Origin: an archaeon
Lineage (GTDB): Archaea > Iainarchaeota > Iainarchaeia > Iainarchaeales > 1-14-0-10-31-34
Direction: 5' to 3'
Length of the DNA stretch: 15,112 nt
Assembly (NCBI GenBank): GCA_043815885.1
Contig: JBDRIL010000062.1
Location: forward strand, 1 to 15,112
The notes under the pieces were generated by a model that was not told the origin of the DNA, did no database searches, and was given only the letters and a program-made list of their open reading frames with translations. Made by a program: the position numbers and the translations under genes. Positions 6,618-9,898 of this stretch are shown piece by piece; within the stretch, counting starts at the first letter, position 1; each line of letters opens with the position of its first letter.

Positions 6618-8117
6618 ATGGAGAAAAGAACAAGAAGCTTTTTAATTCTTGCCATTATATCTGCAGTGCTTTTACTGTTATTTTTTGTAAATGACTTAAT
6701 TCACTCCATTCTTTATGCAATTACAAGGGAATTAATTGGAGGCCTTTCAAGCGGGAAAACAATCCTTTTACTCTCATGGTTTATGGTGAATCCATTAATC
6801 AGCATCCTCTTCCTGAATTCATCTATCCCGAAAAAAATCCTTAAATACAAGGATTTACTGCTTAAAATATTCATTCTTTCCCTGATTGCAGGCTTTCTGC
6901 TTTCTGCAGCACAATACACTTATTTTTCTCTTTCATTTAATTCATACGGGCCTTTTGCTGCACTTACAATGGAGGAAGGATACATTAACTGGGAGGCCTC
7001 TAATGCATTGCATAATCACTTCCCTAAAGCAGCCATTTACTTCATTGAAAAATCCCTTGGATTCAGTATTGGAAACAAATTCGATGACGGAAAACCCCTC
7101 TACCTTATTTTCCCCAATCCAGAGCCATGGGCAATAGTATTCATAATCATTACCTCAATAATCCTTGTTTCTGGATTGCTTCACATTAACTCTCAAGTAA
7201 AAAAAATAAGTTTATTTGATTACCTCTTATTCCTTTTAGCATTCATTGCAATAACAGTTAATGTCATTGACGGAGGAATCGGCTCCAGTACAGCCTTTGC
7301 TCCATTCTTTTTCCTCTTTCTCTATATTTCAAGGAATTATTTCTCGCTAAAAAACAAAATCCTTCAAGCACTCCTTCCATTGCTTTTTCTTTCTCTATTC
7401 TTCCTTTCATTCACTCTATTGATTCAGGCTGACCTCATCCATGAAACACTCTCTCTTCCATTCGCTTTATTCATTGCAGTTCCATTTTACTTCTATGAAT
7501 TAAAGAAACAAAAACAACTGAATTTCAGCTGGCTGAATACAGCATTAGTAATCCTTTTCCTTATCTCTTCCTGTTTCGCTTTAATGAATCTCAGTAATTT
7601 TGCTTTCGGAAGAGAAATAACTGATTTAAGGCCTGAAGCGTCTCTTCAAGACTCCTTTAAAGGAGGAGGAATTTTCTTTTATGGTTTGCCAAGAGAAATG
7701 TCCCTGCAACAGCTTAATTCCGAATTGAATCCTTACGGAGAAATAATTGAATCCTACAAGAATGGATGGACTGCATATGCGAGAATTGTTCCATTCAAGC
7801 CATTCCGCACAGGAGAACTGGAGAATAAATTAACCCTAGAACTCAATCCTTCCACTTATTTCTTTGCAGTTGAAAACGTTCCCCTGCCGCAAAGAGAAAC
7901 TCTGGTAATTCACTGGTTCAGGGAAACCGATTCAACTGAATTCCTCAGAGATGAATTCCTTGGAATAAAGGTAATAGAAAGAAAAGAACTGAAAGAAGAG
8001 AATAAAACAGAAATCACAATTGACTCAAAAATCGATCTTCCTTGGCAGATGCTTTCAGTTCTAACAGAAATAAGGGAAAACGGCTTCAAAGGAAAACTGC
8101 TTGTAAGCCTGAAATAA
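6618..8117 (+). CDS. Hypothetical polytopic membrane protein with soluble C-terminal domain
   Basis: 499-aa ORF with multiple hydrophobic segments, an extramembrane loop (HNHFPK...FDDGKP), an IDGG motif and a hydrophilic C-terminal ~170 aa. Confidence 0.8.
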   Translation: MEKRTRSFLILAIISAVLLLLFFVNDLIHSILYAITRELIGGLSSGKTILLLSWFMVNPLISILFLNSSIPKKILKYKDLLLKIFILSLIAGFLLSAAQYTYFSLSFNSYGPFAALTMEEGYINWEASNALHNHFPKAAIYFIEKSLGFSIGNKFDDGKPLYLIFPNPEPWAIVFIIITSIILVSGLLHINSQVKKISLFDYLLFLLAFIAITVNVIDGGIGSSTAFAPFFFLFLYISRNYFSLKNKILQALLPLLFLSLFFLSFTLLIQADLIHETLSLPFALFIAVPFYFYELKKQKQLNFSWLNTALVILFLISSCFALMNLSNFAFGREITDLRPEASLQDSFKGGGIFFYGLPREMSLQQLNSELNPYGEIIESYKNGWTAYARIVPFKPFRTGELENKLTLELNPSTYFFAVENVPLPQRETLVIHWFRETDSTEFLRDEFLGIKVIERKELKEENKTEITIDSKIDLPWQMLSVLTEIRENGFKGKLLVSLK

Positions 8118-8119
8118 AG

Positions 8120-8191
8120 TGGGCCCGGGGAGAATTGAACTCCCGACCTACACCGTGTGAAGGTGTTGTCCTACCACTAGACCACGAGCCC
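8120..8191 (-). tRNA. tRNA-Val(CAC)
   Basis: Minus strand GGGCTCG-TG-GTCTAGTGGTAGGAC-A-ACACC-TTCACAC-GGTGT-AGGTC-GGGAG-TTCAATT-CTCCC-CGGGCCC-A folds into a full cloverleaf. Anticodon CAC; no encoded CCA. Confidence 0.97.
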
Positions 8192-8324
8192 AAACCGCAA
8201 ATCGGTTTACGCTTACAGCGTCGGGGTATCTTCGATACCCCATAAACTGAATGTTATCAGTTCACGCAAACCGCCACTGTCGGTTTACGCCAGTGTACTA
8301 CTTTCAGTAGTACGTGCTTCGCAC
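8192..8324 (-). repeat. Array of seven contiguous short hairpins abutting the tRNA-Val 5' end
   Basis: On the + strand, AAACYG-N5-8-CRGTTYACGC occurs three times (8192-8212, 8244-8267, 8268-8290). Four perfect triloop hairpins lie at 8209-8221, 8223-8241, 8295-8313 and 8314-8324. GC is 64/133. Confidence 0.85.
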
Positions 8325-8350
8325 CTATTATTTCCTTCCTACTTTAACTT

Positions 8351-8356
8351 TTTAAA
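8351..8356. promoter_or_regulatory. TTTAAA TATA box between the tRNA-Val/hairpin array (-) and the DUF362 gene (+)
   Basis: 23 nt before ATG 8380 and 26 nt before the edge of the hairpin array (8324) on the minus strand. Confidence 0.55.
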
Positions 8357-8379
8357 CACTAAAGTAATTCAATTATCTT

Positions 8380-9576
8380 ATGCCTCAAAAACCGGTTGTT
8401 TCAGTAATGGAATGCAATGAATACGATTTAATTAAGGTAAAGGATTCCTTAAAGAAAGGCTTCCAGAAATTAGGAGGATTGAATAAATTCATTAAGGAAA
8501 ACGAAAGAGTGCTCATCAAACCAAATGTATTGGGGCCGTTTCCTCCGGAAAAAAATGTTACAACTCATCCAGTTATTGTTCAGGCGTTAATTCAGTTAGT
8601 AAAGGAAATTAATGCAAAGCCATTTGTTGCTGAATCCGCTGGAATAATGGAAGACTTCGGCACAACAAAGGCAATGGAAAAAGCAGGAATACTTGAATTA
8701 GAGGCAAAAGAAAGAATTCCAGTGAAATCCTTTGAGGAAACAGGATATAAAAAAATAAGGATTAAAGGAAACAAGCTCAATGAATTCTTTATCCCAAATG
8801 ACGTAATTAAATCCAATAAAATAATTTCTGTTCCAAAGTTAAAGACTCATTTAAATACCTTGTATACCGGAGCAATAAAGAATTCCTTTGGTTTTGTTCC
8901 CTTAAAGTACAGAAAAAAAGCCCATTCATTCAAGAAAACAGAAGAATTCTCTGAAGCAGTAGTGGACATTTTTTCCGTCAGAAAACCTGACTTAATTGTA
9001 ATGGATGCAATTGAATCAATGGAAGGGGAAGGCCCTGTGAGCGGGAAAAAAGTCAATACCAATCTTCTCCTCCTTTCAAATGACGCAGTTGCTTTGGACA
9101 GGGTTGCAATAGATTTAGTTGGTTTCAGGGAAGAAGAAGTGCATCATGTAAGGATTGCAGGAGAGAGAGGTTTAGGCGAAACAGATTTAAATAAAATAAA
9201 ATTATTTACCCCAAAAAACCTAAAGAAATTCAGTTTCTCTAAGCCTTCTACAGTAATTTATGAGGGAAGGATTCCCTCTCCACTGAGAAGAATTGCAATT
9301 GAAATGATTACCCCTAAACCCCAAATAAACAGGGATAAATGCATTTCATGCCTTAACTGCGTAAAACACTGTCCAGTAAAAGCAATAAAGGAAACAAAAT
9401 CCACCCCAATAATCAACAGAAAAGAATGCATTGAATGCTATTGCTGCATGGAATTATGCTCCTCCAATGCAATCACTCCAAAAAGAAGCTTCACAGCAGA
9501 AACCGCCTCAAAAATCCTTAAATTAATCCGCAGAAGAGAAAAGATTATTAATAAAAAGCAACATAATTGTAATTAA
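8380..9576 (+). CDS. DUF362 domain protein with C-terminal 2x[4Fe-4S] ferredoxin domain
   Basis: VLIKPN, TTHP, PKLKTH, TGAIKN.FG, MEGEGP and DAVALD motifs; CISCLNCVKHCP and CIECYCCMELCS cluster motifs. Confidence 0.92.
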   Translation: MPQKPVVSVMECNEYDLIKVKDSLKKGFQKLGGLNKFIKENERVLIKPNVLGPFPPEKNVTTHPVIVQALIQLVKEINAKPFVAESAGIMEDFGTTKAMEKAGILELEAKERIPVKSFEETGYKKIRIKGNKLNEFFIPNDVIKSNKIISVPKLKTHLNTLYTGAIKNSFGFVPLKYRKKAHSFKKTEEFSEAVVDIFSVRKPDLIVMDAIESMEGEGPVSGKKVNTNLLLLSNDAVALDRVAIDLVGFREEEVHHVRIAGERGLGETDLNKIKLFTPKNLKKFSFSKPSTVIYEGRIPSPLRRIAIEMITPKPQINRDKCISCLNCVKHCPVKAIKETKSTPIINRKECIECYCCMELCSSNAITPKRSFTAETASKILKLIRRREKIINKKQHNCN

Positions 9577-9780: not shown

Positions 9781-9898
9781 TGCAGGGAGGAGGATTCGAA
9801 CCCCCGAAGGCACTAAGCCATCAGGTTGCTTCGAATAAAAATAAAAATTAATTTTATTCCCCTAAACCTGATCCGTTTGACCGCTTCGGTATCCCTGC
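9781..9898 (-). tRNA. tRNA-Leu(TAG) with a 34-nt intron at 37/38 (intron 9827-9860)
   Basis: Acceptor stem GCAGGGA/TCCCTGC-A, anticodon arm TCAGG-TTTAGG[intron]A-CCTGA, long variable arm, T-arm GGGGG-TTCGAAT-CCTCC. Intron stem GAATAAAA/TTTTATTC; no encoded CCA. Confidence 0.95.

Follow-up and report, generated by a model that had tools for sequence, protein, structure and literature searches.

A mosaic array of small palindromic modules upstream of an archaeal tRNA-Val(CAC) gene, with copies at the boundaries of stable-RNA genes

The interval directly upstream of tRNA-Val(CAC) in this archaeal genome (8192-8324, minus strand) parses into seven back-to-back hairpins, and shuffled copies of these modules occur at 12 other loci of the same genome. 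The array is therefore not unique, and it is not a single structured ncRNA. We consider it probable that the array is a mosaic of small mobile or recombining palindromes, similar to REP/BIME elements or to mitochondrial GC clusters, and that RNase P removes it from the transcript, of which it forms the leader. Under this explanation the interval would be the transcribed 5' leader of pre-tRNA-Val(CAC), wholly built of modules, and the modules would be short GC-rich palindromes of a lineage-wide repeat family that accumulate in the transcribed-then-discarded parts of stable-RNA genes: leaders, trailers, introns and rRNA spacers. Spread and reshuffling would occur at the DNA level, through copy-insertion at the hairpin/gene junction, recombination between arrays, or both. 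Transcription would begin about 24 nt downstream of a shared A/T box, at the first hairpin. Each module would then fold locally and leave the tRNA cloverleaf free, and RNase P, for which this genome encodes the RNA, would cut between the last hairpin and G1, with the leader being discarded. The array itself would have no sequence-specific function.

The window, that is, the whole stretch of 15,112 nt that was analysed, is the entire contig C62 of a DPANN-type genome of 1.16 Mb (62 contigs, 36.8% GC, 91.7% complete). The seven-hairpin parse of the minus strand was obtained with ViennaRNA. An earlier reading made from the sequence only had given a parse of the tRNA strand that matches 8324-8192 of the minus strand exactly, and had placed nearly every base within a hairpin; in the fold, the hairpins cover all but 7 of the array's 133 bases. 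The minimum free energy of the array RNA was -56.7 kcal/mol, compared to a shuffle mean of -34.2 (z -6.84), and 0 of 200 shuffles were equally stable. Folded as DNA, the array reached -36.2 kcal/mol (z -7.8), again equalled by 0 of 200 shuffles. None of 1500 random 133-mers from the same genome folded as well as the array (minimum -54.5, mean -21.6). When the precursor was folded whole, the seven hairpins and an intact cloverleaf formed without cross-pairing. Array composition was 48.1% GC with 12 CpG and a CpG observed/expected ratio of 1.6, compared to 36% GC and a ratio of 0.41 in the window and a ratio of 0.43 in the genome, in agreement with the earlier description of 48% GC and 12 CpG in an AT-rich, CpG-poor window. 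A metagenome scan for the hairpin/tRNA junction gave a sole match, contig L157, which bears the identical array and is possibly from the same sample; the array is thus not an assembly artefact of the window's contig.

Array units are 11-24 nt long, with stems of 4-10 bp and linkers of 0-4 nt, and three of the loops are GAA closed by C-G. All seven hairpins are given here on the minus strand, in the direction of the tRNA. Hairpin 1, the A module (GTGC-GAA-GCAC, 8314-8324), lies at the predicted 5' end of the transcript. It contains GCGAAGC, which we take to be an unusually stable DNA mini-hairpin, and the A unit is also found directly before B at C14, C45 and C8/C52. Hairpin 2, the B module (GTACTACT-GAA-AGTAGTAC, 8295-8313), has an 8-nt mini-hairpin inserted in its loop in other copies. 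It is followed by hairpin 3, T1 (GCGT AAACCG-ACAGTGG-CGGTTT, 8268-8290), which is flush with the tRNA in a variant designated X4, and by hairpin 4, the T-like J module (GCGT GAACTG-ATAACATT-CAGTTT, 8244-8267). Hairpin 5, the G module (GGGGTATC-GAA-GATACCCC, 8223-8241), has copies at C14 and C33 in which the loop letters differ. Hairpin 6, the S module (ACGCT-GTA-AGCGT, 8209-8221), precedes the terminal hairpin 7, T2 (AAACCG-ATTTG-CGGTTT, 8192-8208), which is flush with G1 of the tRNA. Together with its GCGT lead (23 nt), T2 recurs flush before tRNA-Val(TAC) at C21 and tRNA-Pro(GGG) at C45, within the leader of tRNA-Trp, and in mirror image at the 3' end of RNase P RNA. The modules J-G-S-T2 form a 75-nt block (8193-8267, minus strand) that is bounded on both sides by GCGGTTT, the heptamer of the 3' arm of T hairpins, and is absent in a related contig.

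Array end 8192 abuts G1 (8191) of tRNA-Val(CAC), a gene on the minus strand (8119-8191) with no encoded CCA. Both ARAGORN and Rfam (RF00005, 67.5 bits at 8120-8191) place the tRNA end at 8191, so the flush junction described from the letters stands. A convergent 499-aa ORF (6618-8117), which had no Pfam match, ends with its stop codon 2 nt from the tRNA-Val 3' end. On the other side of the array is a divergent gene for a DUF362 + 4Fe-4S protein (8380-9576, plus strand; Pfam PF04015, E 2.7e-52), the mRNA of which is probably leaderless. Between tRNA-Val and the DUF362 gene there is just one A/T box (8349-8356; TTTAAAAA on the minus strand, TTTTTAAA on the plus strand). Its distance is 24 nt both to hairpin A, on the minus side, and to the ATG of DUF362 at 8380, on the plus side. 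In archaeal promoters the TATA element is centred about 26 nt before the start, and we infer from the spacing that this is a shared bidirectional archaeal TATA box. The sequence about 24-30 nt before G1, inside the array, is GC-rich and has no A/T box. The position of the sole A/T box, together with the lack of one inside the array, suggests a pre-tRNA that most likely carries the array as its leader and begins with the array's first base.

Searched by BLAST against the genome that contains it, the 133-nt array returned 15 non-self HSPs at 12 loci. At 10 of these, the copy lies directly against the 5' end of a tRNA, an exon boundary, a fragment of a tRNA 3' end, or the 3' end of RNase P RNA. 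Six are leaders, namely those of tRNA-Val(TAC), Pro(GGG), Ile(TAT), Trp and Tyr and that of an intron-bearing tRNA on C61. Two are introns, one of tRNA-Tyr, adjoining the 3' exon, and one of tRNA-Gly(CCC), adjoining the 5' exon, and two are 3' flanks, one of a tRNA-Leu fragment and the other of RNase P RNA (C14:17627-17933, minus strand). The two exceptional loci, C8 and C52, are versions of one locus before a protein gene. Since about 93% of the genome is in long ORFs and the flanks of some 45 stable-RNA genes are a minority of spacers, 10 of 12 is well above what a random scatter over spacers would produce and represents a strong enrichment, in which the units counted are copies of a repeat family and not independent events. 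The enrichment beside tRNA genes that the sequence-only reading had proposed to look for was thus found, at the boundaries of stable-RNA genes.

Upstream regions were read for 23 ARAGORN-called tRNAs, and in nine of them modules of the same or a related kind directly adjoin the tRNA, in varied order. Related arrays are also found in the 16S/tRNA-Ala/23S spacers and fill the 23S leader as far as its processing stem. Another set of modules (ATCGGAACC...GGTTCTGAT and partners) behaved like those of the Val leader, at tRNA-Val(GAC), tRNA-Pro(TGG), two tRNA-Ser genes, an operon tRNA and the 16S 3' flank. Copy number was about 2-10 per module, and at most array-bearing genes a T-type hairpin lies 0-2 nt from the mature end. 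Standard tRNA finders overlooked several intron-bearing tRNA genes in this genome; the two tRNA-Ser genes and the tRNA-Gly, tRNA-Tyr and tRNA-Trp genes were identified by eye. The tRNA-Tyr call relies on a C1-G72 pair, which we take to be typical of archaeal tRNA-Tyr. A hairpin-density scan limited to perfect stems of at least 7 bp overlooked most arrays.

Module content at a given gene varies between genomes. The orthologous tRNA-Val(CAC) locus was found via the tRNA and the 499-aa ORF in three relatives (G002, G007 and G001), all of which keep the convergent 499-aa neighbour (36-44% amino acid identity), and none has a GC-rich array. Upstream of the tRNA, G002 has an A/T box at about 20 nt, G007 has the end of a protein gene, and G001 has one unrelated AT-rich module that is missing in G007. 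The DUF362 neighbour had no match in 8 family genomes at E <= 1e-20. A metagenome contig of 5693 nt (run X4 record 22), known from an alignment table of segments and joints alone, covers 7929-8192 and 8268-8700 at about 90% identity and omits exactly 8193-8267, 75 nt and four hairpins, at the leader/tRNA junction. Its 58-nt leader is A-B-T1, with T1 flush on G1. Because the three orthologues lack the array and the X4 contig lacks 75 nt of it, the array is dispensable and changeable. Across relatives the arrangement is neither single-copy nor invariant, as expected of the mobile modules that the sequence-only reading had proposed.

The 75-nt difference would be an insertion, and it could also be a deletion between the two GCGGTTT repeats. 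The block has no terminal inverted repeats, and its ends are like-oriented T-type hairpins. Mirrored copies of J-G-S-T2 were found at C14:17550-17620 (94%, RNase P RNA 3' flank) and C33:13948-14011 (92%, tRNA-Leu fragment), and the similarity among the three block copies stops exactly at CGGTTT. Variation among the three was seen in loops alone: the 19 loop positions account for all 6 variable sites and both indels, and the 49 stem and 3 linker positions are unchanged. By our own arithmetic, the chance of all six variable sites falling in loops is about 2e-4. The C8 and C52 versions are identical for about 135 nt downstream of T1 and unrelated upstream of hairpin A; within the array, they differ by the insertion of an 8-nt mini-hairpin in the B loop and by one loop substitution. 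Copies and polymorphism together suggest that the modules are mobile. Tiny non-autonomous palindromes inserting at a tRNA 5' boundary had been the first option raised from the letters, and it fits the multiple copies, the 10 of 12 boundary loci, the variable order and the 75-nt junction polymorphism. Its restriction to the 5' boundary does not hold, as modules also occur reverse-complemented at 3' ends, in tRNA introns and in rRNA spacers.

To compare orientations, the 150-nt 5' and 3' flanks of 43 stable-RNA genes, taken in gene orientation, were searched all against all, and the best HSP per flank pair was retained (E <= 1e-4). Among 5'/5' pairs, 24 were on the same strand and 1 on opposite strands; for 3'/3' pairs the counts were 9 and 0, and for 3'/5' pairs 3 and 15. 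The three same-strand 3'/5' pairs are single spacers scored from both neighbours, and the informative 5'/3' flank pairs are reverse complements in 15 of 15 cases. The lone opposite 5'/5' pair is a spacer doubling as a 3' flank, and a few of those on the same strand come from flanks that overlap or from paralogous duplication (Lys/Phe; two tRNA-Ile genes). Modules lie in sense at 5' ends and reverse-complemented at 3' ends, with the T-type hairpin end toward the gene either way. A similar pattern was seen in relatives. Among 14 loci fetched by similarity, eight were flush and in sense (6 tRNA, 2 23S), three were mirrored against a tRNA 3' end or 5' exon, one was mirrored within an intron, two lay beside protein genes, and none was directed away from its gene; further loci gave two more mirrored cases. 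The module-sense strand out-folds its complement in 18 of 20 arrays. G.U pairs are kept on the module-sense strand, mirrored copies included, so that trailer RNA would have A.C mismatches at these positions. Strict mirror orientation is not predicted by simple selfish spread. Gene flipping between the arms of a terminal helix was considered as the source of the mirror and found no support at RNase P RNA; the AlaRS-like gene downstream of RNase P RNA is on the same strand as in relatives and shares only 25% identity.

The mirror rule could also reflect sites that act in duplex DNA. The palindromes would bind a dimeric or polar DNA-binding protein (an insulator, roadblock, terminator factor or chromatin protein) that brackets highly transcribed stable-RNA genes, with the leader orientation permissive to RNA polymerase and the trailer orientation blocking. 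The opposite strands of all 15 informative 5'/3' pairs and the same-strand 5'/5' and 3'/3' pairs are consistent with such sites, and so are the conserved stems and variable loops and the arrays that span the full gap from the gene end to the neighbour's A/T box. However, no candidate protein was identified, the stems reach only 4-10 bp, and most stable-RNA genes, like the orthologues, have no arrays. Loop motifs such as GAA, GNRA-like loops and tandem G.A stabilise single-stranded hairpins rather than duplex sites, and the array loops are of this kind. We therefore regard DNA-level sites as unlikely, and an orientation-dependent block to polymerase equally so.

Complementarity between leaders and trailers of different genes, which follows the same rule, raises the question of RNAs acting in trans. 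One or more independent structured small RNAs could be released from the leader by RNase P, and leader modules might, for example, pair with mirrored trailer modules on the RNase P RNA precursor or on another precursor. In support, the RNase P RNA 3' flank carries, at 94% identity, leader positions 63-133 in reverse-complemented form. An RNase P RNA was identified here and in 9 of 9 family genomes, and hairpin modules occupy its 3' flank in 9 of 10 family loci, but they are different in each, which rules out the RNase P RNA trailer as a conserved guide complementary to leaders. Rfam 15 gave nothing near the gathering score at 8192-8324 (best snR79, 15 bits vs 55, E 8.9), and its other matches were at chance level (E above 0.3) besides the tRNA and its reverse-strand image; the sequence-only reading had likewise recognised no named family. 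The architecture is not conserved at orthologous genes. We hold a trans-acting RNA to be very improbable, with or without pairing to other precursors, and the second option of the sequence-only reading, a structured ncRNA processed from the tRNA transcript, gains no support when the orthologues and the X4 contig are compared. A C/D-box sRNA was rejected, the sole hint being the chance-level snR79 match. Pairing of leader and trailer in cis was also rejected: no array follows tRNA-Val(CAC), and the module at the 3' flank of 16S has no counterpart at its 5' flank.

The T1 module was present in 7 of 8 other family genomes and in 1 of 32 genomes from other families of the order, with relatives sampled through at most 30 loci per search. 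An alignment of 17 instances, 13 of them distinct, revealed a loop, (A/G)CAG(T/A)(G/A)G, that is near-invariant across genera. In the stem, 5 of 6 pairs are changed on both sides, a level reached by 0 of 500 shuffles. Variants are common within a genome or genus (AAATCG/CGATTT in G001 and G006; CAACCG/CGGTTG in G002, G004, G005 and G007), a distribution that fits both copies spreading or homogenising within a genome and co-evolution with a recognising factor. A 17-mer T1 search of genome contigs returned 117 loci, nearly all of them chance matches in bacteria; the extended T1 module was found in only 5 of the 117, all archaeal MAGs and one labelled Candidatus Iainarchaeum. In viral contigs, the T1 17-mer gave 3 chance matches inside coding DNA and the T2 21-mer gave none.

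The covarying stem and invariant loop of T1, the position of T hairpins and the folding of the sense strand suggest selection rather than junk. These hairpins may serve the host: the terminal T-type hairpin, or perhaps the whole array, would label the mature ends of stable RNAs, as a signal for processing, protection or insulation of folding. Such hairpins would act in RNase P cleavage at 5' ends and in trailer trimming or termination at 3' ends, and in long spacers they would keep the sequence from mispairing with the tRNA. In this genome (G000), a T-type hairpin is flush (0-2 nt) at no fewer than 8 tRNA mature 5' ends, that is, at least 8, and at the 23S processing stem, and flush hairpins were found in relatives at the 6 tRNAs and 2 23S genes noted above. 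A T hairpin stands against G1 in both the long and the 75-nt-shorter forms. The near-invariant T1 loop on a stem changed on both sides, the G.U pairs favouring the sense strand, the free cloverleaf in the precursor fold and the modules after the RNase P RNA 3' end in nearly all family loci are further in line with such a role. However, the upstream regions of about two thirds of the genome's tRNA genes are short, plain and rich in A/T, three relatives do without the array at their tRNA-Val(CAC) orthologues, and module content at a gene differs among genomes. In mirrored copies the transcribed trailer strand has A.C mismatches in place of G.U pairs. The T1 instances were gathered with a pattern demanding all six pairs, although 14 of 14 similarity-only matches passed that pattern. 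A functional reading, whether as end-marking and processing hairpins or as a polar DNA site, is kept because of T1 conservation, flush T hairpins and the mirror rule, and we rate it as rather improbable, the individual roles at 5' ends, 3' ends and spacers included.

A bolder proposal, which we offer tentatively as a minority possibility, is that these are archaeal mini-elements that home to gene boundaries. The conserved-loop T-type hairpin would dock an array on the terminal helix of any stable-RNA gene. Since the terminal helix looks alike from both strands, mirror arrays would result on both sides of the gene. The same cassettes placed in anticodon loops would build long tRNA introns, and some such genes would perhaps be separately transcribed halves. 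If true, this would be a working mechanism by which archaeal tRNA genes gain leaders, trailers and introns.

Returning to the mosaic of mobile or recombining palindromes, we examined candidates for a mover. A Y1/HUH transposase (PF01797) was not found in this 91.7%-complete genome, while control genomes gave matches, and a reverse transcriptase (PF00078) search of the same genome also returned none. The HUH/RAYT or RT genes that the sequence-only reading had proposed to look for elsewhere in the genome were thus not seen; the absence of a mover from a 92%-complete MAG is not proof of its absence. Three TnpB-type copies (C38, C11 and C2/C7) have ends without a T-like hairpin and unrelated to the modules.

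In this lineage the shared units are small and countable, and they recur in leaders, trailers, introns and rRNA spacers and beside RNase P RNA. Together with the clean presence/absence difference at the 5' junction of a tRNA and the strict rule of orientation, they bear on how archaeal tRNA genes come to have introns, split forms and long leaders. For annotation, GC-rich and CpG-rich islands beside DPANN tRNAs are to be read as repeat mosaics, not as new RNA genes. Searches of the literature outside subscription journals found no account of such arrays at archaeal tRNA leaders.

Several known systems share features with the array. One group is that of MITEs or palindrome-associated elements derived from IS200/IS605 (reviewed in PMC10969869). 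They resemble the modules in being small, non-coding, structured, multi-copy and polymorphic for presence or absence. MITEs have terminal inverted repeats and a target-site duplication; the 75-nt block lacks terminal inverted repeats, and the GCGGTTT on its two sides is also the 3' arm of the T hairpins. In contrast to the shared ends of IS200/IS605 derivatives, the ends of the resident TnpB-type IS are unrelated to the modules.

Transposed tRNA introns of the Thermoproteales, and leader and trailer sequences of split tRNA genes, have been described (Fujishima et al. 2010; Randau et al. 2005; both as summarised in PMC4090602), and in the same text tRNA 'intron transposition' in archaea is inferred, with its mechanism unknown. 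As far as that text goes, the likeness lies in sequences common to introns and flanks of unrelated tRNA genes; here, the introns of tRNA-Tyr, tRNA-Gly and others are made of the same modules as leaders. In contrast to the cases as they appear there, small hairpin modules or blocks would spread here rather than whole introns, and the Val(CAC) copy would belong to a leader that RNase P removes instead of sitting at a bulge-helix-bulge site.

BIMEs are mosaic clusters of REP elements. In bacteria, REP elements and BIMEs are linked to RAYT (Y1/HUH) transposases, according to the parts of PMC3733652 and PMC4550694 consulted. The likeness to the elements as PMC3733652 describes them in those parts is in short imperfect palindromes in transcribed non-coding DNA, mosaic units, short linkers and a copy content that is variable between strains. 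Here, clustered palindromic units of 11-24 nt, compared to 20-40 bp in REP elements, occur in an order that differs between loci. The REP unit has a conserved GTAG (or CGTC) tetranucleotide at one end (PMC3733652, same parts), whereas GTAG here is found only within the stems of B and C modules, in both arms, and T, J, G and A have no tag; there is no single end tetranucleotide. The host here is an archaeon in which the PF01797 search gave no RAYT/Y1 gene, copies number about ten per module at most, not hundreds, and the modules are bound to stable-RNA gene boundaries with mirror polarity.

Reportedly, GC-rich palindromes flanking tRNA genes in Neurospora mitochondria were described by Yin, Heckman and RajBhandary in 1981. 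In the sections consulted of two further sources, yeast mitochondrial GC clusters merge, shuffle, vary more in loops than in stems and are flanked by short direct repeats (PMC4478555), and the RHEs of sponge mitochondria are GC-rich palindromic elements (PMC2800124). As these sections describe them, the mitochondrial clusters and the present arrays have in common GC-rich hairpins in an AT-rich, compact genome beside tRNA and rRNA genes, merging and shuffling, variable loops, presence/absence polymorphism, short direct repeats and no known dedicated transposase. By analogy and not homology, the array matches them in its 48% vs 36% GC, the boundary positions of 10 of 12 loci, the 75-nt polymorphism and the loop-only variation. 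The present arrays differ in belonging to the chromosome of a free-living or episymbiotic archaeon instead of an organelle, in their smaller modules (11-24 nt), in a terminal hairpin flush with the mature end and in the mirroring at 3' ends. In behaviour, REP/BIME mosaics and mitochondrial GC-rich palindromic clusters are the closest analogues. The present analysis contributes the rule of mirror orientation, the 75-nt polymorphism at the tRNA junction, the restriction of variation to loops, the copy beside RNase P RNA and the covariation in the T1 hairpin.

A single A/T box (window 8349-8356) lies between the seven-hairpin array that abuts tRNA-Val(CAC) and the divergent DUF362 gene. On the minus strand it stands 24 nt from the first base of the array, and on the plus strand 24 nt from the DUF362 ATG at 8380. 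This equal spacing on both strands suggests a bidirectional promoter and a leaderless DUF362 mRNA. CpG observed/expected was 1.6 in the CpG-rich hairpin array, compared to 0.43 across the whole source genome (G000), which is strongly depleted.

Hairpin modules also make up the long introns of two tRNA-Ser genes (UGA and GGA; G000 contig C29:~17790-17945 and ~19637-19765) and of tRNA-Gly(CCC) (C29:20350-20560), all three of which went undetected by both tRNA finders. In tRNA-Gly(CCC), an A/T box occurs ~20 nt upstream of the 3' exon, a placement from which the two halves might be transcribed separately. The ~150-nt intron of tRNA-Tyr(GUA) (C49:14887-15119, minus strand) begins with a hairpin and a T7 run, followed by a leader-like array of F, C, B and T1 modules; the leader of this gene ends in a T1 module as well. 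The second tRNA gene of the window, tRNA-Leu(UAG) (9781-9898, minus strand), contains an AT-rich intron of ~45 nt. It was recovered by the whole-genome search (RF00005, 43.7 bits) and was called neither by ARAGORN nor by the window-wide Rfam scan.

Directly 3' of tRNA-Leu(CAG), a degenerate second copy of its two acceptor ends surrounds a hairpin module (C33:13840-13936), and a mirrored array, with modules reverse-complemented, comes next. At contig ends C8:2263-2552 and C52:1-290, one side of a hairpin array is identical and the other unrelated; this array is a breakpoint, either strain-level or from assembly.

No Y1 transposase was found in the 91.7% complete G000, which carries TnpB-type (PF07282) insertion-sequence copies at C38:17321-18638, C11:11239-12556 and C2:2056-2885 / C7:12284-13113, pairwise 90-92% identical.

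Further, AT-richer hairpin repeat families were seen at ~100 loci of G000 (for example C56:2475-2623, C50:15644-15744 and C2:1515-1584); the number of BLAST partners of a single site reaches ~40. Some of these repeats are located within or just 5' of tRNA genes (C33:15462-15523, C31:718-747, C20:2152-2202).
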